Notes under the pieces: generated by a model | What the model saw: only the letters and a program-made list of their open reading frames with translations | The model's database searches: none | Told to the model about the DNA's origin: nothing | Source of the DNA: Escherichia coli | Lineage (GTDB): Bacteria > Pseudomonadota > Gammaproteobacteria > Enterobacterales > Enterobacteriaceae | Assembly: GCF_024700885.2 (NCBI RefSeq) | Contig: NZ_CP117014.1 | Direction: 5' to 3' (one strand) | Length of the DNA: 64,000 bases | Part shown: one piece after another, positions 22,973 through 47,100 of the stretch | Numbering within the stretch: the stretch's first letter is position 1 | How the letters are laid out: every line of letters begins with the position of its first letter | Made by a program: the position numbers and the translations under genes

Positions 22973-23365
22973 CTACCAGCTAGACAAACGAACAACATGT
23001 TTCACTTTTGCGATCCACTGTCCGCGATAACTATTGATTACGGCCTGTGCCAGCTTCAAATTGGCTTCAAAATCAGCCTTACTACCATCAGACTCCACCA
23101 GCATTCCTCCATCTATTTCTGGTAAACATAGATAATCCTGCTCAACCTGCAGCGGCATTGATGGCTCTCTGAATGGGGTTACTTGCTCTGCTTTCCAGCG
23201 AAATCTAACCCTTATCCCCCTGGTGGTCATTACTAGATAGCCTGTTATAGTGCTTTTATGGCCCACATCAGTACGCGTGGCATTGCATGACTCGATCTTA
23301 CAGTTAGCGATAGACCACTCCATATTGGTGGCCTGTTGAGTGCTTAATTTGGTAGTCCCGTACAT
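22973..23365 (-). CDS. hypothetical protein (pdcA position)
   Basis: 130-aa ORF, ATGA-type overlap with the upstream gene. Confidence 0.4.
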   Translation of the reverse strand: MYGTTKLSTQQATNMEWSIANCKIESCNATRTDVGHKSTITGYLVMTTRGIRVRFRWKAEQVTPFREPSMPLQVEQDYLCLPEIDGGMLVESDGSKADFEANLKLAQAVINSYRGQWIAKVKHVVRLSSW

Positions 23366-23940
23366 CAGAAAGCCTCCCAGTCAGTCGCGATAATATCCAC
23401 ACCAGTTGCAAACCAGTCTGTCTGCGCCTGTAAATCCCCATTCATCATTACCAGGCGAGGCATCACCATCACATCGCACCCTTCCACAATATCGAATGCC
23501 TCTTCCGGCAAGAATTCGAAGAGCTTTTCTTTGCTGCCAATACTGCCACGGAACATCGATATATAGCTCCCTTTGGGCCATGATGTCCGCCGGGCATCAA
23601 GCCCTTTCATCATCCAGTAAAAAGCCGAGGAAAAAGGGATATTCTTTTTGCCAATGATTACATTATTCGCTTCTGTGTATTTCAGGAACTTAACTAACCT
23701 TACCATTGACTCGGATAACGCAACGTATGGCTCATGATTGATTGCTGACACGCTTACACCGTGCAATCCAACGCTTACCACTGTCATATCGCCGCTCTGT
23801 GCGGTTTCGATATTGACGCCTTTGCGAACTAATGAGGCGTAAATTTCCTCTCGCTTTTGGGTCCAGCGTTCACGCTTCCCTATGAAGTCACTCAAAATGA
23901 GATCTTCTTCTGTATATGCGTTATCGTTCGCCATTAACAT
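23365..23940 (-). CDS. protein with C-terminal DUF2829-like domain (pdcB position)
   Basis: 191 aa; FSSAFYWMMKGLDARRTSWPKGSYI...DWFATGVDIIATDWEAF follows the DUF2829 pattern. Confidence 0.5.
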   Translation of the reverse strand: MLMANDNAYTEEDLILSDFIGKRERWTQKREEIYASLVRKGVNIETAQSGDMTVVSVGLHGVSVSAINHEPYVALSESMVRLVKFLKYTEANNVIIGKKNIPFSSAFYWMMKGLDARRTSWPKGSYISMFRGSIGSKEKLFEFLPEEAFDIVEGCDVMVMPRLVMMNGDLQAQTDWFATGVDIIATDWEAF

Positions 23941-24162
23941 AACGTTTCCTTTTTTACACGCGCGACTATCCCCCGGAAGTACCGGTAGTGATGTCGTAAC
24001 TTCGTATTAATTAAGGGGTACAGCCTGAGCGGCTATATGATGAATTGAAAGGAGTTGTGGCGGTGGTGCCTCCACCTGCCAGGTTAGCCACTCCTGGCGA
24101 CGTCACTTATCAGAACGTAGTGAATGAAAATGGCTTCGTCACGAGCGCATAGCCGCAATTAC

Positions 24163-24210
24163 CACAACGGAAACGGCGCTCACGCTAATTAAACGCCTTT
24201 TCCTGTTGTG
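24163..24210. repeat. hairpin H1
   Basis: CACAACGGAAACGGCG / CGCCTTTTCCTGTTGTG, 15-nt loop, one mismatch and one bulged T. Confidence 0.6.
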
Positions 24211-24392
24211 CGCCGTGCTCTTCCGGCTGTCACACCGAATCGCCAGGATGGTGAATCCGCAGTCCGACGCTATGAACGGGGCTTGCACATTCCGGCTACC
24301 TGGTGTGCCCATGCAGTGTTAGTAAAAGGTACCTAACAGCTACACCAGACCGCTAACGACGCATGTGCCATACGCCGTGTTACAACCAAATG

Positions 24393-24468
24393 TGGTGGCC
24401 CCTACCGGACTTGAACCGGTGACCGTGCGATTATGAGTCGCCCGCTCTAACCACTGAGCTAAAGGGCC
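24393..24468 (-). tRNA. tRNA-Ile2/Met (anticodon CAT, ileX-like)
   Basis: Reverse complement GGCCCTTTAGCTCAGTGGTTAGAGC..GACTCATAATC..GGTTCAAGTCC..GGGGCCACCA folds as a cloverleaf and closely resembles E. coli ileX. Confidence 0.85.
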
Positions 24469-24477
24469 AGATTACTG

Positions 24478-24606
24478 TTAATTACGCTTACGCTTTTTGC
24501 CAGAACCGCGTAAGGCTTTTGCCGCTTGCTCTACCCCGTATGCAACCACCAGCAGAAACAATAATGTCCACTCCGGGTTTTTATCGGCAAACGCCCAAAA
24601 ATCCAT
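24478..24606 (-). CDS. possible 42-aa membrane peptide
   Basis: Hand translation MDFWAFADKNPEWTLLFLLVVAYGVEQAAKALRGSGKKRKRN; AGGTGG 9 nt upstream; below the ORF-track cutoff. Confidence 0.25.
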   Translation of the reverse strand: MDFWAFADKNPEWTLLFLLVVAYGVEQAAKALRGSGKKRKRN

Positions 24607-24785
24607 CACTTGCAGCCACCTTTTAAGACAAAACGCCATTGCTGTTAGGTTGCGGTGCCGGGCGCCTCCCGGTGACGTTAACCAGTTAACAATTAACGCC
24701 GGATCACTTATGGATTCTCGTTACGCCAGTAAAAAGACCACCTTTACTGTTTTAACTGTTCCGCGTGCGCTTAGCCGCATTCACC

Positions 24786-24895
24786 GCAATGGTAAGAGCA
24801 TTTGGCTGACTGGGCGGCGATGACGCCTGTACGCATTTGGTGATCCGGTTCTGCTTCCGGCATTCGCTTAATTAGCCAAATACCCTTAATGTTGC
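24786..24895. repeat. hairpin H2
   Basis: GCAATGGTAAGAGCATTTGGC / GCCAAATACCCTTAATGTTGC (21 positions, 16 Watson-Crick); ends 2 nt from the CCA end of tRNA-Ser. Confidence 0.5.
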
Positions 24896-24897
24896 AC

Positions 24898-24984
24898 TGG
24901 CGGAGAGTAATGGAATCGAACCATCATCGCTTGCGCAATGGGACGGTTTTCAAGACCGCTTGAGCACCATGCTCCCTACTCTCC
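24898..24984 (-). tRNA. tRNA-Ser (anticodon TGA)
   Basis: 87 nt; acceptor GGAGAGT/ACTCTCC, anticodon loop CTTGAAA, long variable arm (6 bp plus GCAA loop), T-loop TTCGATT, encoded CCA. Confidence 0.85.
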
Positions 24985-25114
24985 CGTTATTGTGGCGACC
25001 GGTGCTGATCTCCGGCTTGCGGTTATTTCAGACTCTCACGGGCGTTTAATTGCCCCGCCGAACAGCTCTTTTCCGCAATAGCTGCAATGTCTTTCGCGCA
25101 TCAGCCTGCGCATT

Positions 25115-25214
25115 CACCACAATGTTGAGAACACTGGTTGTCACGCTGCAACGCAACATTTATTCGTAGATTGGGATATGACCCCGTTACGCCAGTGTTC
25201 TCAACGTTGTAGTG
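25115..25214. repeat. hairpin H3
   Basis: CACCACAATGTTGAGAACACTGG / CCAGTGTTCTCAACGTTGTAGTG: 23 positions, 21 Watson-Crick, 1 G-T, 1 mismatch; 54-nt loop. Confidence 0.65.
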
Positions 25215-25350
25215 CCGGTTACGGTTCCGGCCAGACCTCTTCCTCAACGGGGTGTTCTCCATACGGACTACCGTTTATTGGTCGTTCCTGCGGTTTATGT
25301 TGTGAAGCCAGATGCTTATCTTCTGGTTGCTTCAAAGAGCTGCACTTCAT
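25215..25350 (-). pseudogene. decayed tRNA-Thr-like copy
   Basis: CCGGTTACGGTTCCGGCCAGACC aligns with the 3' third of the intact tRNA-Thr (GCCGGTTAACGGGATCGAACCGCTGACC); T-arm destroyed, no CCA; the 5' part is only weakly alignable. Confidence 0.4.
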
Positions 25351-25437
25351 CACAACGGTAAGAGCATTTATGGCTCGCATCGCGGGAAAAAGCCCACGGT
25401 AGAGAGTCGAACTCTACAAATGCTCTTACCTGTTGTG
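25351..25437 (-). ncRNA. hairpin H4: tRNA-like junction with a T-arm
   Basis: 19-bp basal stem CACAACGGTAAGAGCATTT / AAATGCTCTTACC(T)GTTGTG. On the minus strand it encloses GTAGAG-TTCGACT-CTCTAC (25399-25417, canonical T-loop) and CGTGGG-CTTTTT-CCCGCG. It starts 1 nt after the CCA of tRNA-Thr. Confidence 0.5.
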
Positions 25438-25438
25438 T

Positions 25439-25514
25439 TGGTGCCGGTTAACGGGATCGAACCGCTGACCATTCGCTTACAAAGCGACTGCTCTACCAAC
25501 TGAGCTAAACCGGC
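25439..25514 (-). tRNA. tRNA-Thr (anticodon TGT)
   Basis: 76 nt; acceptor GCCGGTT/AACCGGC, D-arm GCTCAGTTGGTAGAGC, anticodon loop TTTGTAA, T-loop TTCGATC, encoded CCA. Confidence 0.85.
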
Positions 25515-25518
25515 AATT

Positions 25519-25605
25519 TGGTGGGGAGTGATGGAGTCGAACCACCCGAGTCGCAATGACAGTAGATTTACAGTCTACCCCGCTACCCCTACGGACTAAC
25601 TCCCC
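25519..25605 (-). tRNA. tRNA-Tyr (anticodon GTA)
   Basis: 87 nt; acceptor GGGGAGT/ACTCCCC, anticodon arm GTAGA-CTGTAAA-TCTAC, long variable arm, T-loop TTCGACT, encoded CCA. Confidence 0.85.
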
Positions 25606-25610
25606 TAAAT

Positions 25611-25687
25611 TGGCGATGGTGGGTGGATTCGAACCACCTACCGAAAGCTTAGAAGGCTGCTGTTCTATCCTACTGAGCTACACCATC
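25611..25687 (-). tRNA. tRNA-Arg (anticodon TCT)
   Basis: 77 nt; acceptor GATGGTG/CACCATC, anticodon loop CTTCTAA, T-arm GGTGG-TTCGAAT-CCACC, encoded CCA; the anticodon stem has one mismatch. Confidence 0.8.
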
Positions 25688-25887
25688 ACTTGCCGGGTAC
25701 GTCTCCGGCGAGGGCTTCCACCTCCGTATGCTTTTCGGCGCACCGCGCCCTGGCTGCAATTCGGTAACAGGGGATGCACAACCCTGGCTTCCAGCGTGAT
25801 TAGCGCCTTCAGCATGACGGGATATACCCGTTACAAGAAGTTCTCCCAGGATGCCATTAAGCAATGGCTGTTACGCGGGAAGGACGC

Positions 25888-25964
25888 AACAGGTAAGGGC
25901 GCTGACCAGAAAGACCTGACCCTTCTCATTCATCTGGTTAATCACACCAGCGCCCTTGCCTGTT
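25888..25964. repeat. hairpin H5
   Basis: AACAGGTAAGGGCGCTG / CAGCGCCCTTGCC(T)GTT with inner stem ACCAGA/TCTGGT; same bulged T as H1 and H4. Confidence 0.6.
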
Positions 25965-26148
25965 ATGCCTCCCCGTTCCCTAATACACAGACGGGGACAC
26001 TCTGCGGTCGATTTTTTTGACGGGGGACGACTCATACCCCGTGGCGTCTGGCTTCTTAGGCCGCTACCATCATCAGATCATCGTTTGCATTTACTTTAAT
26101 GGTCAGTTTCTAAACCGCCGCAAAGTCGCTAACCATGACGAAAACCCT

Positions 26149-26172
26149 AAAAAAGCCCACCCGAAGATGGGC
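26149..26172 (-). terminator. rho-independent terminator (minus strand)
   Basis: Minus strand reads GCCCA-TCTTCGGG-TGGGC followed by TTTTTT. Confidence 0.55.
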
Positions 26173-26191
26173 AAATACGCTACATCTCACA

Positions 26192-26270
26192 CAAGAAAGA
26201 AGCCGACTGCCTGAGCTGGATTCACTTTCAAATGCCCGCTGAAAGGGATCACAAGTCGGCTTCTTTCTTG
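26192..26270. repeat. hairpin H6
   Basis: CAAGAAAGAAGCCGACT / AGTCGGCTTCTTTCTTG: 17-bp perfect stem, 45-nt loop with inner stem CTTTCA/TGAAAG. Confidence 0.7.
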
Positions 26271-26486
26271 ATGCGGCACTCTCTCCGCCCGTCACCGCTC
26301 TGTCTCGGTTGTCGCGTTTGCCACGCCAGCCGTAACGAGGTTTAAAGTCTTTACACGTTTCCATCACTCGACTGCCGTCTGTGGCTGTTCGTTGCAGCGG
26401 GGGTGCCTCCCCCTGGGGATATCCCCGGCCTTACCCCATTCTTTCAAGACACAATGCAAGGCCACATCCGCATAGGTGCATTACCG

Positions 26487-26551
26487 CAACATTAAGGAGA
26501 CTCAGGGCAAAAGGTAACCGCCACAAAAATCCCTATGCCTCCTTAATGTTG
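26487..26551. repeat. hairpin H7
   Basis: CAACATTAAGGAG / CTCCTTAATGTTG: 13-bp perfect stem. Confidence 0.65.
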
Positions 26552-26559
26552 AAGATGTG

Positions 26560-26614
26560 CATTGATGATTAGATGCAGCATGTACCGTTACTCTCTGCCG
26601 GACCATCATCAATG
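26560..26614. repeat. hairpin H8
   Basis: CATTGATGAT / ATCATCAATG: 10-bp perfect stem, 35-nt loop. Confidence 0.55.
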
Positions 26615-26750
26615 AACACCTTAAAAAGACCTTCCGTGGCTCAACATGTATTGTCGTTTACTCCGCAAAGTGCTCTCTCTGAAACCACTTTCCGCACTAA
26701 ACCTGCTGAACTTTGGCCTGCACGGTGCCAAAGCGTGCTCTTGCATTACT

Positions 26751-26764
26751 ATACATTTCTAACA
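26751..26764 (-). promoter_or_regulatory. operator-like 14-mer, copy 8
   Basis: Minus strand reads TGTTAGAAATGTAT and overlaps a TATAGT -10-like hexamer pointing into the non-coding island. Confidence 0.45.
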
Positions 26765-26906
26765 CTTTAATTTGTTAAATGCTGGTGGGCGAACAATAAC
26801 CAATAAGTGACTATCAAGCCCAGCAAGCGAAACGTGGGTACCGCCCACCAGCAAGGAAAATTCTATGTTAAGTTATCTTCACAATCAATACATTCGAATT
26901 GTGATT

Positions 26907-26920
26907 TTAGATTTCTAACA
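26907..26920 (-). promoter_or_regulatory. operator-like 14-mer, copy 9
   Basis: Minus strand reads TGTTAGAAATCTAA, followed by TAAAAT; directly after the stop of the 402-aa gene. Confidence 0.45.
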
Positions 26921-26922
26921 CA

Positions 26923-28131
26923 TTATTTCCCATAAAGATCTTCTACACCCCCATTCTTCTTATCCCATTCGTTCGCCCATACCCGGCAAGCGTCAATGAT
27001 TTCCTGACGACGATCTCCTTGCATGAACGGGATGCTTTCATGGAAACAGCTTGGAATGCAGGCCACACTGAATACAGTATCAAACTCCGTCTGCTTGATT
27101 GCCTCCAGCGTCTCCGGACGCATTTTTAATTCATCGATTGGCGCATCCTTAGAGTCCATAATCCGGCGATATAAGCGCGGAAAATCCGTCTCCAGATACG
27201 CCATAATTTTATCTGCGAGACATTCGTCTATGTCGGTATTCCAGTCCTTTTCGAAGCCCGGCAGGCGATAGTAAAGCGGCGTTCCCCATACCGATGGGAT
27301 CACATCCATCGTTAACAGGCGATTGGTTCTGATTTGTTGATGGTAATTAGCCGTCAGCAGTGCTTCGCCACGCTGCCCAGTTTCCGCAACCAGGCCGTGC
27401 GGATACTCATGGATGTAGGCAATGGCATCCCTTCCATCATACATAAGTGGAAATGTCTCTGGTCTTTGTCCCATGCCACAAGCACGGTTCAGATCGTGAC
27501 CAAGCTGTGAGCACTCTCGCTTTAATGTTTCGATAATGCTCTGCGCTGTAGCCAACTTTTTACGCAGTGTGACGCCTTCGCCTTGATAATCAATGCATTG
27601 CTGATTGAGCTTGGTTAAACGCTCTTTTAGTTCCCGGCGCTCTCTTTTCAGCGTGCGGTTATCCTTCTCCGCAACATCCAGCCGCTTTGTCAGGCTTGGC
27701 GGATAGTCTTTTTTGTAACGGTTCAAATCGGCTTCGGCAGATTTACGCAGTGTATTTGCCTGTTCAAGACGCGCTTCCAGATTGCCGATCTCATTACGCA
27801 TATTCGCGGCAAATTGATTAACTGCATCACCCAGGCTTTCAACTGTCGCTGATACGCCTGTGACTTGTGAAAAACGGATCAAGCCATCATTAACTGCTTG
27901 TTGGTATTCCTCAAACTGATCCACCAGCTTATTGTAATCAACTGCCCCATCATCAAGCAGCTTGTTGATTTCCGCCACCAGGTTATCTGTAGTGGCAATG
28001 ACACTCTCGTGCAGTCGCTTTGACAGGTCATCACCCGGATTCCGTTTCTGTATAAGAGCGATTTGTGTGCGCAGCGTTTCAATTGCTGTCGAGATAATTT
28101 CCAGATTAGAAGTATCAGTGTGTTGACTCAT
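26923..28131 (-). CDS. coiled-coil protein of unknown function
   Basis: 402 aa; N-terminal ~215 aa heptad-rich, globular C-terminal half; operator copy 10 lies 25 bp upstream. Confidence 0.55.
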   Translation of the reverse strand: MSQHTDTSNLEIISTAIETLRTQIALIQKRNPGDDLSKRLHESVIATTDNLVAEINKLLDDGAVDYNKLVDQFEEYQQAVNDGLIRFSQVTGVSATVESLGDAVNQFAANMRNEIGNLEARLEQANTLRKSAEADLNRYKKDYPPSLTKRLDVAEKDNRTLKRERRELKERLTKLNQQCIDYQGEGVTLRKKLATAQSIIETLKRECSQLGHDLNRACGMGQRPETFPLMYDGRDAIAYIHEYPHGLVAETGQRGEALLTANYHQQIRTNRLLTMDVIPSVWGTPLYYRLPGFEKDWNTDIDECLADKIMAYLETDFPRLYRRIMDSKDAPIDELKMRPETLEAIKQTEFDTVFSVACIPSCFHESIPFMQGDRRQEIIDACRVWANEWDKKNGGVEDLYGK

Positions 28132-44116: not shown

Positions 44117-47100
44117 TTTGCAACTCCTTCATACATCCCAAGAAAAATTCCAGCACGCCGTCATTGTTTAATACAGAGTTAGTCGCCTGCTCCGGATCGG
44201 CATACATCTGCAAGGCCATAGAAAAAATCTCAGTCGCCCTGCAATTGCTTAATGCAGGTGGCTTTGATATAAATCTGCCGCTGACAGAACTTACCGTATT
44301 TTCCATATAAATTTTAGACATATATCCATGACTTAGGTCGGTTCGCACCAAATACTCAGCACTGCCACGGCTACCAATATTATGATAAGAAACTTTACCG
44401 TTAGTTTTTGATTTAATGAAGGCTTTGGCCCTCTCCAATAGATGGGGATTTGAATGTTCTATATGGTGACCTATTTCATGCCATAATACACGCTCGTGAT
44501 CACTATTAGCATCAATTGTTATATTCCCATTTCGACTTGCAAAAGCACGAACATTGTTCTTGTGGTTAATATTTTTTAATGTAGATAAAGTCCCTCCTGA
44601 AATAATATAGGCTTTTTCAATCGTCTCGCGAATACTGTATGCTTTACGGGAGAAAGTTTCATTATCGTGACCACTTAACTGCTCTGCTTCATCAGAAATA
44701 GCAATCCCACGACTCCATTCCTTAGACTGGTCATGTGACACATTTGACGATTCAAGAATCATGTCAAATGCGGCTCTGACTTTTTTATGTACTACATTTT
44801 CAAGCGCATTAGGATAGGCTTTTTGTCCACGTGTTAATGAAGCTATTTCATATAGTTCTGCTTGCAAGTCTTCCGGTATGTCCAGATTAAAAACAAGCAT
44901 TTTTTTCAGATCATATCCAATCCCATGATCATTCTGGTGCAAAACCTCAGCAAGGTAGTCAGTGAGTTTTTCCTTATTTGACCTAACTTTATTGATTTGT
45001 TCTATAGTAAAGTCAACACGCTCCTTGATTCCGTAATATGAGGAATGCTCTGCTAATTCCACTATCTCCTTAAGCCTGACAAGTGTCTCAATATACGCAT
45101 CAGCGATCTCCTCTGCCGTTAGTTCAGAGCTAACTCCGACACTGGCTGTTATTTTCCTACCAGCCGCCATAATATCGTCGATATTATGCAAGCTCTTTTT
45201 GAATAACTTCAAAGTATTTTGGATTATGCACACCATCTCTTCTGCGCTTCCAGCTTTATTCATTTCCTTTCTAAATCTTAAAGCTGTTTTCTCTGCAATA
45301 GACGCTGGAGATTTTAAATAGTTACCTAACCAAACAAGACAACCATTGCGCAATTCATCAATACTAAAGTCATCAGGAATATGTTTTGCTGCATTATGTA
45401 AAACACGTATAAATTGTTCAGCGGGCACGCCTTCTTCTGATATGTTGCAAAACGTTTCAATATCACAATCAATATTTCTTTCATCTGCGAGCGAAGGAGC
45501 TTCATCTCCTTTTTCAATCGCGTCACGCAGTGCGTTAGCATAAAAATTGCTGCGTTGATAAGACAATAACATCGTTGTTAACACAGCGTCGCTGTATCCA
45601 TAACGTTTAGCCCACTCCTTAATCTCATTAACGGTGACATTGCGAATATAAAAACCAAGTTCCAAAAATACATTGCGCTTTATTTTTTTTGCGGACTCCT
45701 TAATTTTTTCTGACACCTTCACGATTCGGATCAAGTCCTCCACGCTGGTCGCATCAGCAATTAGCTTTGAAATGTATGGTTCGACATCTCCTGAAACCGA
45801 TTCAAACATGGCGAAATTAAGCCCTTTACCTTCGCCATACTCAGCCTCAATTTCATCAGAAACGGCAGATAAAATGCTACGCAGATCGACATCTCCGCCG
45901 CCGAACATATCGCCTAACGCTTGTTGCTGGTGAATAAGTTCATCGTTAATTTTTTGCGCCAGTTTCTTGAAAGCTGCCCCCATTCGCTTAGCGCTTCGGT
46001 TGTTGGCAACAATAAACAGAGCAAGCGCTTCTGCTTCCGGAGTGCTATCTCCAAACAATCCACGCTGTGCGATCACCTCTTCTACTGCCTGACCGTTATC
46101 TTTTGCTTCACGAACAAGGTTAATTGCTTCCTGTAGCGCGGCAATAGCCTGTTTATCCAGACCATTCAATTGCTCTATACCGTCTACCAGTCCGGTTACC
46201 GTGTCATGGTGAACATCACCTGAAAGCGACTGCATTTGCGCAAAATCGCTGGCTGCCGTATTTAATGCGGTAAGAATGTTACGCATTTCCGGATCTGGCT
46301 CTTCCGCCACCAGCCGAACAAGCCTTTCATCCTTGTACGCTTTGGCAAAAATTGCATTCTGGATGCGGTCGATAAGTTGTTTCGTTGGACGCCCATCGGC
46401 AGTAAGCAAACCTGCCGTCGCCGTATCACCTATTTCGCGCAAAAACGCACGAATAAACGCATCATTGGACCGCGCCAGTAGATTTCCATCATCTGAAGGA
46501 TTAAATAGCGCCATGACGCTCTCAGTGAGAAATTGCGCATCCGCATACGCTTTTTCACTTGCAGCCATCTCTTGCAGATCGCTGATGTTTGAATCGCGGG
46601 CAAATTGTGCGCGGTCTACATCTGTGAGTCTTTCTCGCACCAATACGGGCATAGACATTTGTGAAATGTCGTCAGGATTCAGACCAAACTCTTTTGCATG
46701 ATCGATCAGGTACTGGCGATATTCATCCGCCTGCCCTTGCTCATAGGCACGCCAGATACCCATGCTCCTTCCGTTGCCGGATTCAACAACGTTGTCCGGA
46801 CCAACTATCGGCGCTCCGTGGCTGCTCATGCCGGAATCCGTTAATTGTGCCGGGCGTAAATTGGAGGCAATACGGTTAACCTGGAGTTTGCTTGATAGCC
46901 GTGTACGGTCACGTGGCTGGAGTTCTTCCGGGAAGGCCGGATTAATCGTACCGTCAAGGTTGTTCGAAATGATCAGACTGCTGGCATCAACGACCTTAAA
47001 AGCCGTCTTTACCTCTGCCCCTTTACTGGTGACTACGTAACTACTGCGCCCCTGGCGTGTTTCTCGCCTCTCTAATGAAGAAACCAGCGCAATAACACTG

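Follow-up and report, generated by a model that had tools for sequence, protein, structure and literature searches.

The window, a 64-kb stretch of Escherichia coli DNA (64,000 nucleotides), contains between 24053 and 26928 a region whose minus strand carries five tRNA genes and a series of inverted repeats. The first-pass annotation had listed eight such repeats, H1-H8, and all of them were found where it had placed them. The features are given below with the scores of the covariance model R1 (CM), which was built only from P1/D6/SSU5-like copies of the hairpins, lambda and Qin sequences being left out.

24053-24168 (−): STnc100-like branched domain closed by GUUGUGGU...GCCACAAC (RNAfold; direct repeats D10/D12); its 5' strand overlaps the H1 3' arm, and it precedes a Tad2-like ORF
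24163-24210 (−): H1, family hairpin, CACAAC-A-GGAAAAGGCG...CGCCGUUUCC-GUUGUG (CM 49.8 bits, E 2e-11; plus strand 14.2 bits; fold −23.2 kcal/mol, z −5.7)
24393-24468 (−): tRNA with CAT anticodon, P1 trnI/Ile2-type position (ARAGORN; Rfam tRNA 66.7 bits; P1 annotation)
24651-24789 (−): STnc100-like domain, leader of a TciB-like small ORF at 24478-24639 (Rfam RF02076, 39.1 bits, below the gathering score of 47)
24783-24897 (−): H2, family hairpin with a 64-nt element, X, in its loop at 24810-24873 (CM 48.8 bits; plus strand 16.1); the 15-bp stem forms on the minus strand only, through two G-U pairs
24898-24984 (−): tRNA-Ser (TGA) (ARAGORN)
24990-25122 (−): branched domain closed by UUGUGGUG...CGCCACAA, between H3 and tRNA-Ser (RNAfold, −43.5 kcal/mol)
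25112-25217 (−): H3, family hairpin with a GUUGAG-type stem and a base 3 bp longer (CM 57.9 bits; plus strand 36.3; fold −47.9 kcal/mol, z −8.3); the P1 copy is nearly identical
25351-25437 (−): H4, family hairpin (CM 70.9 bits; plus strand 43.5)
25439-25687 (−): tRNA-Thr, tRNA-Tyr and tRNA-Arg(TCT) cluster (ARAGORN; Rfam)
25886-25966 (−): H5, family hairpin without a bulge, an A-U pair standing there (CM 57.5 bits; plus strand 30.7)
26147-26172 (−): intrinsic terminator-like hairpin and U tract (terminator scan; P1 annotation and alignment)
26192-26270 (−): H6, perfect 17-bp inverted repeat outside the family (no CM match; folds)
26392-26490 (−): STnc100-like branched domain closed by GUUGCGGU...GCUGCAAC, overlapping the H7 3' arm (RNAfold, −50.3 kcal/mol; repeat D10)
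26487-26551 (−): H7, marginal family member (CM 18.3 bits, E 0.014)
26552-26622 (−): H8, separate hairpin outside the family (no CM match; z −2.5)
26860-26888 (−): promoter-like site TTGATT-17-TAGAAT (promoter scan, consensus match only)

All eight repeats fold better than dinucleotide shuffles on both strands (z from −2.5 to −8.3 for the minus strand, from −2.3 to −7.5 for the plus strand), H8 being the weakest. The CACAAC...GTTGTG base said to be common to H1-H7 was recovered by the model in H1-H5 (49-71 bits, E 1e-11 to 1e-17, minus strand) and weakly in H7, the sole further match in the window, but not in H6; H6 and H8 gave no match in the scan of the 64 kb. In the Salmonella relative L004, conservation does not extend to the 3' arm of H7, and H8 is conserved in sequence, without covariation. 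H6 is kept in the Salmonella relative with one C-to-U change that makes a G-U pair on the minus strand; together with the neighbouring terminator-like hairpin, which is conserved with P1 at the end of the P1 "dicF-like region", it looks sRNA-like. The single bulged T assigned to H1, H4 and H5 is present in H1 and H4, where it is a bulged A on the transcribed strand, but the position is a paired A-T in H5.

The adjacency to tRNA genes is exact: tRNA-Thr (25439-25514, minus strand) is separated by 1 nt from the end of H4 at 25437, and tRNA-Ser by 2 nt from the end of the H2 repeat at 24895, so that on the minus strand both hairpins begin just past the CCA. Of the decayed tRNA-Thr copy proposed beside H3, a remnant of ~11-17 nt of the tRNA 3' end could be recognized, but the full alignment was no better than shuffles (score 24; shuffle mean 17.5, maximum 34). 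A repeating unit of tRNA plus hairpin describes H4 and H2 but is too narrow for the family, members of which also occur by themselves, for example behind CI repressor genes, behind tR' and ahead of dicF. The region mostly lacks a credible ORF, as had been stated, except for the 53-aa ORF at 24478-24639 (−), which lies at the position of the TciB-like/DUF3927 gene annotated in D6 and related plasmids and has no Pfam match. The P1 CDSs plp and upl, annotated on the opposite strand over the equivalents of H2-H4, are interrupted in relatives and likewise have no Pfam match.

The promoter-like site could be the start of a minus-strand transcript. It is flanked by direct repeats (D13; 26752-26772 and 26908-26928) that may be operators, and the P1 homologue of this region is annotated as the C1-controlled Pban operon.

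Conservation and strand of the stem family

H1-H5 belong to an RNA stem family common to P1/D6-like, SSU5-like, lambda-like and rV5-like phages. Its consensus, 5'-CACAAC(A)GKURAG...CUYAMC-GUUGUG-3', is a covarying stem of 19 bp, after which a GUGAAU tail usually comes. Among 47 oriented copies, 96.1% of the stem cells are paired, against 35-59% when the partners are slid, and compensatory substitutions were found in the stems of relatives: 14 of the 19 pairs show changes on both sides (110 cells), which none of 500 shuffles matched, although such pair counts alone do not prove an RNA function because DNA inverted repeats also give "covariation". The count was also made in an 18-sequence version. 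Between the P1 copy of H4 and the copy here, for example, the stem differs by compensatory changes (GGUAAGGGUA/UACCCUUACC versus GGUAAGAGCA/UGCUCUUACC). Each of six positions of the 5' arm is conserved in at least 43 of the 47 copies, and two A-U pairs are invariant; the bulged base occurs in only 18. Most family representatives have main stems of 16-26 bp on the transcribed strand and loops of 15-82 nt that are mostly unrelated in sequence. As in the window, family hairpins of P1-like and SSU5-like loci adjoin the CCA of tRNAs, and in rV5-like phages a stem enclosing X directly follows the tRNA-Ser CCA.

The two strands are not equivalent. The transcribed strand always scores higher in the model (56.5 versus 34.6 bits in lambda, for instance), and it gives the better fold in 18 of 24 clusters (Wilcoxon p 0.003). 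It also carries more G-U pairs (26, against 11 on the other strand; p 0.02), one stem position being a U-G wobble in 26 of the 47 copies. At eight lambdoid-type loci from IMG/VR, in four of which a Peptidase_S24 repressor was confirmed with Pfam, the preferred strand is that of the flanking genes. The opposite-strand fold is as good or better in H5 (−36.5 kcal/mol on the minus strand, −38.4 on the plus strand) and a few other copies.

Relatives in lambda and the Qin prophage

The whole lambda genome contains a single R1 match, at 44783-44868 (+) (E 3e-13; hairpin 44787-44862), in the late leader immediately 3' of tR', where GenBank has only the doubtful orf-64; none of the other RNase III sites of lambda was matched by the model. 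The lambda hairpin has the same base and the same bulged A as H1 and H4, and is provided with a CUGAAU tail; the X element, which here occupies the loop of H2, comes next in lambda. Unlike the hairpins of the window, it is a single copy and has no tRNA genes nearby. In vivo RNase III processing sites are reported for lambda late RNA (Daniels et al. 1988) and may coincide with this hairpin.

Two further matches were found in the K-12 Qin prophage, between ydfC and dicF (E 1e-4) and between cspB and essQ (E 1e-6). The first, CAUAAC-G-CGAAAGCGCA...UGCGCUUCCG-GUUGUG, is a sequence homologue of the family with the bulge beside the base box. Its place is an untranslated spacer of a polycistronic phage transcript, with an sRNA and an STnc100-like leader downstream; such a leader is found in the window as well. 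This Qin hairpin differs from H2 and H4 in that no tRNA adjoins it and in being the most divergent member and the weakest match (25.5 bits), and it is here that cleavage has been demonstrated: an RNase III processing site lies upstream of dicF in the Qin dicBF operon (Faubladier et al. 1990; bioRxiv 10.1101/2023.04.14.536235), and a 190-nt DicF species, whose 5' end is the RNase III cut, is lost without the enzyme (bioRxiv 10.1101/2023.04.14.536235). If the 190 nt are measured from the annotated 3' end of dicF (1649434), the 5' end falls at 1649245, ~12 nt inside the 3' arm of the hairpin and adjoining the near-invariant G-C and A-U pairs of the family, a position uncertain by several nt because the length was estimated on a gel. 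The second Qin hairpin (1641160-1641227) contains a candidate RNase III site, 1641188 (essQ-cspB; 25 versus 0 reads), from a very long list (Gordon et al. 2017, Table S1).

Probable processing stems and alternative interpretations

The hairpins exist, covary, are strand-specific, adjoin the 3' ends of tRNAs and have homologues in Qin and lambda. Because the E. coli relative is a proven RNase III site, they most likely mark cut points of the tRNA/small-RNA transcript, and from this homology we infer that the copies in the window may also be cut by RNase III. Our main reading, to which we give a probability of about 0.6, is that H1-H5, and perhaps H7, are minus-strand RNase III-type processing stems, from a family with stems of ~19-26 bp, in a long, mostly untranslated phage transcript. 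Precursor processing by RNase III/E was one of four roles offered by the first-pass annotation, and it is the one that gains support, from the membership in the family of the dicF hairpin with its mapped RNase III-dependent 5' end and of the hairpin in the late leader of lambda, for which RNase III sites are reported.

The transcript would probably start at a repressor-controlled promoter near 26860-26888, by analogy with the C1-controlled ban operon of P1, and would run through the sRNA-like modules, the five tRNA genes and the small ORF leaders to the Tad2-like gene. Cleavage by RNase III would fall in each arm, roughly one helical turn above the CACAAC/GUUGUG base, the 16-26-bp stems being long enough for the enzyme. 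Cuts just 3' of tRNA-Thr (at H4) and tRNA-Ser (at H2) would leave short trailers to be trimmed by exonucleases, and other cuts may separate, or perhaps excise, structured cargo lying within or between the stems, such as X, the T-arm-like loops and the STnc100-like domains. A secondary consequence might be that the conserved arms provide short homologies for the exchange of modules between phages. A terminator reading of the family hairpins fails; no U tract is found past the stems.

Helices at which host RNase III cuts a long precursor into mature units are familiar from the T7 early region (R1-R5) and the rRNA operons. In the rRNA operons, from which spacer tRNAs are freed too, the stems surround the mature RNA in the way that H2 surrounds X. 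There is no sequence similarity between these sites and the family, and the T7 sites have internal loops that direct single cuts, whereas the family stems are near-perfect with a conserved sequence. Positive sequence specificity is slight in E. coli RNase III, so the enzyme alone leaves the strong conservation of the stem base and the GUGAAU tail unexplained; an additional factor, or recent recombinational spread, may lie behind it.

It is also conceivable, though unlikely, that the stems are primarily scaffolds for small stable RNAs, on the model of the species 1 and 2 RNAs of the T4 tRNA cluster or of rRNA processing stems, in which the loop or domain is the functional part and the stem closes, protects or excises it. 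X shows 98% identity to its lambda copy and 87-90% identity to the copies of rV5-like virulent phages, and it is closed by three unrelated stems: that of the family here, GUUGUGCUG/CAGCACAAC in lambda and UGUUGACC/GGUCAACA in LL12. Each of four STnc100-like domains has a closing helix of 8 bp; the homology of the one at 24053-24168 to the other three was judged by eye. The domain just 3' of H2 resembles STnc100 (RF02076)/PasD, which have been reported as prophage sRNAs: its outer helix UGCGGUG...CACCGCA aligns to the model, the GGUGAAU tail of the hairpin forms the first strand of the model's closing helix (consensus caUGGUGAAU), and the domain is 78% identical to the dicF-dicB spacer of an E. 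coli Qin-type (dicB) prophage. STnc100/PasD and the hairpin family both occur in lambdoid prophages; the hairpins themselves, unlike these domains, lie outside the aligned part of the model. The H4 loops here and in P1 contain T-arm-like hairpins, but the likeness is not significant (mascRNA 14.9 bits, E 4.5), and the loops have no Rfam match. The loops are otherwise unrelated, vary from 15 to 82 nt and are freely swapped among relatives, which fits optional cargo. A stable tRNA-linked small RNA is in any case compatible with processing.

A quite improbable alternative places the function in DNA: the arms would be recombination joints that swap, duplicate or mobilise cassettes of tRNA and small RNA genes, by homology or by an attC-like enzyme. 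Breakpoints are enriched in the arms among ~70 related loci (13 of 44 distinct breakpoints in 14.7% of the region, p 0.009). H1 lies exactly at a breakpoint between P1-type and D6-type homology (24209-24211, 35 loci), the H4 loop has been exchanged precisely at 25366 (47 loci) and 25418 (37 loci), and the modules X and tRNA-Ser/Tyr/Arg recur in unrelated phage groups. Such enrichment, however, is expected from homologous recombination at any conserved repeat and needs no dedicated function. Integron attC sites are likewise 50-120-nt imperfect inverted repeats in which AAC...GTT stands close to the outer ends, the centre varies and a single base is sometimes extrahelical, but the family ends, (N)CACAAC and GUUGUGG, do not fit the R'' (RYYYAAC) and R' (GTTRRRY) boxes, the bulge is limited to the minority of copies counted above, and the cargo consists of RNA genes instead of promoterless ORFs. 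The G-U pairs, the model scores and the constant orientation to transcription point to RNA and not to a duplex or DNA of either strand. The suggestion of attC-like sites thus fails on both the box consensus and the strand asymmetry.

Also in competition with processing stems, but very doubtful, is that the hairpins are bound by a factor that recognises RNA sequence-specifically, such as Nus factors acting through the boxA-like UGCUCUUA in the 3' arm, which would make transcription of the untranslated tRNA region Rho-resistant, or a protein of phage or host that is specific for the CACAAC/GUUGUG base and the GUGAAU tail. The stem base, the two invariant A-U pairs and the single-stranded tail are conserved beyond what RNase III needs, and an untranslated region of 2.7 kb should be open to Rho. 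In its commonest form the 3' arm includes UGCUCUUA/U, taken here to be the boxA core, but this octamer occurs in only 12 of the 47 copies and would be hidden in a stable helix; since its positions covary with the 5' arm, it is the pairing and not the boxA sequence that is kept. The GGUGAAU tail is partly explained as the 5' strand of the next closing helix. We know of no candidate binding protein, and nothing supports the protein-binding decoys that had been proposed. Decayed MITE or IS ends, or functionless chance palindromes, are hardly credible: the elements are short, with terminal inverted repeats, variable interiors and many copies over different replicons, but they lack target-site duplications, their flanks are conserved and differ between the two sides (5' NCAC..., 3' GUGAAU), all copies examined lie in phage, prophage or phage-plasmid operons, co-oriented with transcription where this can be inferred, no further copies occur elsewhere in the window or in lambda, the stems are kept by compensatory changes, and the CM E-values (1e-11 to 1e-17) exclude chance.

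We found no description of such hairpins in P1-like phages, their locus is annotated with ORFs instead in P1, and they match no Rfam family, so the earlier remark that nothing of this kind had been described there seems right. In kind the elements are not new, because their homologue in Qin, and probably that in lambda, is a long-known processing site.

Eight hairpins between the tRNA genes and one covarying stem family

The window is a D6-like P1-type phage-plasmid, in which positions 23900-27000 show 94% identity to phage D6 and, in part, 88% identity to P1 and P7. The roughly 3 kb between the ORFs ending at 23940 and 26923 holds five tRNA genes together with the eight inverted repeats H1-H8 (within 24163-26614); the P1 equivalent forms the leader and inner part of the ban operon, which C1 controls.

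tRNA genes of the region and annotated order in P1
Between the ORFs ending at 23940 and 26923, minus strand: tRNA genes CAT-anticodon, Ser, Thr, Tyr and Arg
P1: Pban/Op72, 'dicF-like region', trnA, trnT, tciABC, trnI, ban

All eight inverted repeats were recovered where the first-pass annotation had placed them, and each folded better than shuffled controls on both strands. The adjacency to tRNA genes was also confirmed, with H4 beginning 1 nt past the CCA of tRNA-Thr and H2 2 nt past that of tRNA-Ser. An alignment of 18 hairpins, taken from the window, from P1 and from D6-like plasmids and SSU5-like phage-plasmids, showed a 19-bp stem in which pairing stands at 95% and compensatory changes occur in 10 pairs. 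From it we built a covariance model (R1) containing no lambda or Qin sequence. R1 matched H1-H5 on the minus strand (19-bp stem plus flanks; 49-71 bits, E 1e-11 to 1e-17) and H7 marginally (18 bits); no other site was found in the 64-kb window, including H6 and H8. The proposal of a single stem family stands for H1-H5, weakly for H7, and fails for H6 and H8.

Read on the transcribed strand, the family consensus is 5'-CACAAC(A)GKURAGRGCAUUG...CAGUGCYCUYAMC-GUUGUG-3', and a GUGAAU tail often comes next. Hardly any variation affects the stem base and two A-U pairs, whereas the upper stem covaries; the loops (15-82 nt) are mutually unrelated. The single bulged T described from the sequence corresponds to a bulged A on the transcribed strand, save in H5, where the base is paired. 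When the alignment was extended to 47 oriented copies, pairing held in 96.1% of cells and both partners had changed in 14 of the 19 pairs (110 cells); these values were reached by none of 500 shuffles, and sliding the partner arm reduced pairing to 35-59%.

Strand asymmetry points to an element that acts as RNA

Because paired changes are expected from a DNA palindrome too, the argument for RNA rests on strand asymmetry and on co-orientation with transcription. H1-H5 score higher with R1 on the minus strand, that is, the tRNA strand, and the same rule, a higher score on the strand of the transcription unit, holds in lambda, in Qin and in eight IMG/VR loci. The fold was better on the transcribed strand in 18 of 24 sequence clusters, the main stems contain 26 G-U pairs on that strand vs 11 on its complement, and one stem position carries a U-G wobble in 26/47 copies. 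The observed asymmetry and the constant co-orientation point to a family that acts as RNA.

Members were sought with a simple inverted-repeat scan and with the covariance model. Family stems are present in every P1/D6-like locus fetched; in the SSU5-like plasmids, from E. coli and Klebsiella, they adjoin tRNA genes, and an AT-rich version lies in the tRNA cluster of one rV5-like virulent phage. Lambda has exactly one R1 site, at 44783-44868(+) (56.5 bits, E 3e-13), directly past the 6S RNA terminator tR'. The Qin prophage of K-12 has two, one in the ydfC-dicF interval and the other in the cspB-essQ interval, in the leader that separates the Q gene from the lysis genes. On eight lambdoid-type IMG/VR contigs the stem lies just downstream of a gene of ~210-240 aa on the same strand, which is the position of the early-left leader; the gene encodes a Peptidase_S24 CI-type repressor (Pfam) in all four cases tested. 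An exact-pattern scan across genomes, too narrow to define the taxonomic range of the family, gave seven matches, in Escherichia, Pantoea, Mixta, [Haemophilus] felis and three MAG contigs, and the MAG-contig matches labelled Bacteroidetes and Spartobacteria are probably chance palindromes.

Two homologues in Qin coincide with a computed and a candidate RNase III site

The best explanation is that H1-H5, and perhaps H7, are RNase III-type processing stems on the minus-strand tRNA transcript. RNase III makes staggered cuts that leave 2-nt 3' overhangs, and the criteria of Altuvia and colleagues from 2018 reportedly comprise the lack of antideterminant pairs in the proximal and distal boxes and a paired G-C between the cuts. 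In minus-strand folds, ~16-23 stem pairs extend from the base in H1-H5, and 16-26 in most family representatives, a length on the transcript in keeping with the approximately two helical turns (around 20 bp) of E. coli RNase III hairpins.

DicF is excised from the dicBF transcript, and a 190-nt species requires RNase III and has an RNase III cut as its 5' end (bioRxiv 10.1101/2023.04.14.536235, citing Faubladier et al. 1990). With the annotated dicF 3' end at 1649434, a length of 190 nt puts the 5' end at 1649245, 12 nt into the 3' arm of the family hairpin in Qin (base at 1649256). The computed end adjoins G-C and A-U pairs that hardly vary in the family, a location compatible with the Altuvia criteria; the length is approximate, and an error of a few nucleotides would not move this end out of the arm. 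Position 1641188, a candidate RNase III site from RNA-seq of wild type versus rnc mutant with 25 vs 0 reads (Gordon et al. 2017, Table S1), falls in the second Qin hairpin (1641160-1641227). The chance of this coincidence is ~1-2%, calculated from a rough guess of the density of the candidate list. In the literature, rnc-dependent cleavage is a feature of the Qin homologue, and we extend it to the window copies by homology.

No description of these hairpins for P1- or D6-like phages was found in the literature. The kind of element is classical, namely RNase III processing stems in phage polycistronic RNA, and at least one homologue of the family was mapped decades ago. What appears to be new is that one conserved, covarying sequence family is common to several phage groups, is tied to tRNA 3' ends and coincides with module boundaries. 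Three classic loci never connected before, namely the late leader of lambda, the dicF-upstream RNase III site and the tRNA stretch within the ban operon of P1, are thereby linked as carriers of one covarying RNA family missing from Rfam.

Alternative explanations

A role at the DNA level has some support. Among ~70 related loci, 13 of 44 homology breakpoints fall in hairpin arms vs 14.7% expected (p 0.009), H1 is the junction of the P1 and D6 gene orders, and the H4 loop is swapped precisely at the arm boundaries. We read these breakpoints as homologous exchange at conserved repeats and not as a dedicated recombination site. For the attC-like sites proposed by the first-pass annotation, the core boxes R'' RYYYAAC and R' GTTRRRY are not matched, the consensus being (N)CACAAC/GUUGUGG: position 3 of R'' is A and not Y in 44/47 copies, and in R' position 5 is U and not R in 42/47 and position 7 is G and not Y in 30/47. 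Function as attC in single-stranded DNA is also less favoured since the G-U pattern and the orientation point to RNA. An inversion of the H4 loop relative to the P1 H4 loop, mediated by the arms, was dropped as well: the T-arm-like hairpins of the two (UUCGACU/UUCGAAU loop) are at different places in the same transcribed orientation.

Intrinsic termination does not account for the family, in which H1-H5 have GUGAAU-type tails and no U tracts after their stems. A terminator scan gave a strong call at 26172-26155 with a 6-U tract (overlapped by a second call, 26175-26156), and also flagged the inner stem of H1 (24197-24175) and 26848-26834, neither with a contiguous U run after the stem. The core of boxA is YGCUCUUUA/YGCUCUUA and is single-stranded; a boxA/nut site was rejected on finding the octamer in 12/47 copies, always within the stem and at positions covarying with the partner arm.

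Coding is similarly disfavoured. The first-pass annotation saw no credible ORF; a 53-aa ORF does lie at 24478-24639, at the TciB-like gene position of D6, and gave no Pfam match. P1 has two annotated CDSs, upl and plp, on the strand opposite the ban operon, where they are antisense to the hairpins and tRNA-Thr (P1 locus L002, 4160-4729). As plp, which has a TTG start, is broken by stops or frameshifts in several relatives, upl is only partially conserved, and Pfam matches were found neither for P1 Plp and Upl nor for any ORF over the hairpins, upl and plp are probably annotation artefacts.

MITE or IS termini can be discarded: target-site duplications were absent, the flanks are conserved and asymmetric, and every copy examined lay in a leader or spacer of a phage operon. 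The hairpins are covered by no family of Rfam 15, and at permissive E-values only tRNAs, sub-threshold STnc100 and spurious miRNA-precursor or tmRNA matches were obtained. The loops are not tRNA remnants either; no loop gave a tRNA match at E up to 10 (only mascRNA, 14.9 bits), and the supposed decayed tRNA-Thr copy beside H3 is merely a short 3'-end remnant, not significant beyond about 11-17 nt.

A proposed transcript and its modules

The minus-strand transcript carrying the proposed processing stems probably starts at a promoter-like site. A sigma-70-like sequence, TTGATT-17-TAGAAT, is located at 26860-26888 (-) and is bracketed by direct repeats (26752-26772 and 26908-26928) that contain GTGTTAGAAAT (minus strand) and are kept in a Salmonella relative. 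By analogy with the C1 operators at P1 Pban, the repeats are candidate repressor operators, and the promoter may be repressor-controlled. Within 26780-26853 there is also a 12-bp inverted repeat, TGCTGGTGGGCG...CGCCCACCAGCA, which contains the Chi octamer GCTGGTGG in both orientations.

The transcript would run through H8, H7, an STnc100-like domain, H6, the terminator and H5; then tRNA-Arg, tRNA-Tyr, tRNA-Thr, H4, H3, a closed domain and tRNA-Ser; then H2 with the 64-nt element X in its loop, an STnc100-like leader and the TciB-like ORF; and finally the CAT-anticodon tRNA, H1, an STnc100-like leader and a Tad2-like ORF. Cutting of the family stems by RNase III would free the 3' sides of the tRNAs, whose 5' sides would fall to RNase P, and would separate the modules.

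The segments between the hairpins each fold as a domain with an 8-bp closing helix, (A/G)UUGYGGUG...CRCCRCAA, the first strand of which overlaps the GUUGUG arm of the hairpin before it; cleavage could therefore allow refolding from hairpin to domain, which is speculative. Four of these domains are branched and STnc100-like, each competing through the 8-bp helix with the preceding hairpin for the GUUGUG strand.

STnc100-like branched domains
26392-26490, minus strand: branched domain after H7
24990-25122, minus strand: branched domain after H3
24651-24789, minus strand: branched domain after H2
24053-24168, minus strand: branched domain after H1

All except the 24990-25122 domain have a GGAGGC-loop hairpin near the 3' end. 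The 24651-24789 domain scored 39.1 bits to Rfam STnc100 (RF02076), below the gathering score of 47, and the hairpins themselves fall outside the alignment to that model. A 2026 preprint on Pas sRNAs links STnc100 to PasD and does not describe the family hairpins. Two or three of the branched domains precede small ORFs, just as the dicF-dicB spacer precedes dicB.

The most far-reaching picture is a 'beads-on-a-string' array of RNA cassettes, in which alternating CACAAC/GUUGUG boxes bracket every module (tRNA, X, STnc100-like domain, T-arm-like loop) by a helix, neighbouring helices compete for GUUGUG, an RNase III cut triggers the refolding that closes the next module, and the boxes in DNA let lambda, P1/D6, SSU5-like and rV5-like phages trade cassettes. 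We consider this array unlikely as a whole; if true, it would constitute a shared modular system to process and shuffle non-coding RNA, in which a further sequence-specific factor might read the stem base and GUGAAU tail. Processing stems in themselves provide a likely function for ~2.7 kb in P1/D6-type phage-plasmids, a stretch that either lacks annotation or has probably been taken wrongly for coding sequence (plp and upl in P1), and suggest a route to tRNA 3' ends in long untranslated phage operons. The sequence conservation exceeds the known needs of RNase III, and this excess together with the mosaic breakpoints makes the family a tractable case of RNA processing signals doubling as module boundaries in phage evolution.

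Other features of the locus

X (24810-24873) is 98% identical in lambda (L014 2501-2564), where GUUGUGCUG and CAGCACAAC enclose it a short way 3' of the late-leader hairpin, with the same overlapping-helix arrangement around it. It is about 99% identical in P7 and 87-90% identical in rV5-like virulent phages (L090 about 1820-1890, -), in which it follows tRNA-Ser directly and is closed by a different stem, UGUUGACC/GGUCAACA; one of its internal hairpins there shows a G-C to U-A compensatory change. X had no Rfam match and is a candidate mobile small RNA.

At the position of the P1 'dicF-like region', 26147-26270 (-) contains H6, with a perfect 17-bp stem, and an intrinsic terminator. The two look like an sRNA gene, in which H6 is unrelated to DicF.

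A Tad2-like (Thoeris anti-defence 2) domain was detected in the 191-aa ORF at 23365-23940 (-) (Pfam PF11195, E 9.5e-10). This ORF comes immediately after H1 and the STnc100-like leader, so the tRNA/hairpin transcript may end in an anti-defence gene. D6 and P1 have tciA (TerB-like) between tciB and the STnc100-like leader; it is absent from the window (24608/24645 vs L001 2693-3321), and in other relatives this region holds an SPFH-domain gene, IS150 or a TnpB gene (L012 2376-3545), so that it is a hot spot of cargo turnover.

The tRNA-Arg(TCT) gene at 25611-25687 (-) has the acceptor stem, the T arm and part of the D arm in common with the tRNA-Asn gene at the homologous P1 position (L002 4778-4853), and differs from it in the anticodon arm and the adjoining half of the D arm. 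It resembles a tRNA gene that is chimeric or has been remodelled.
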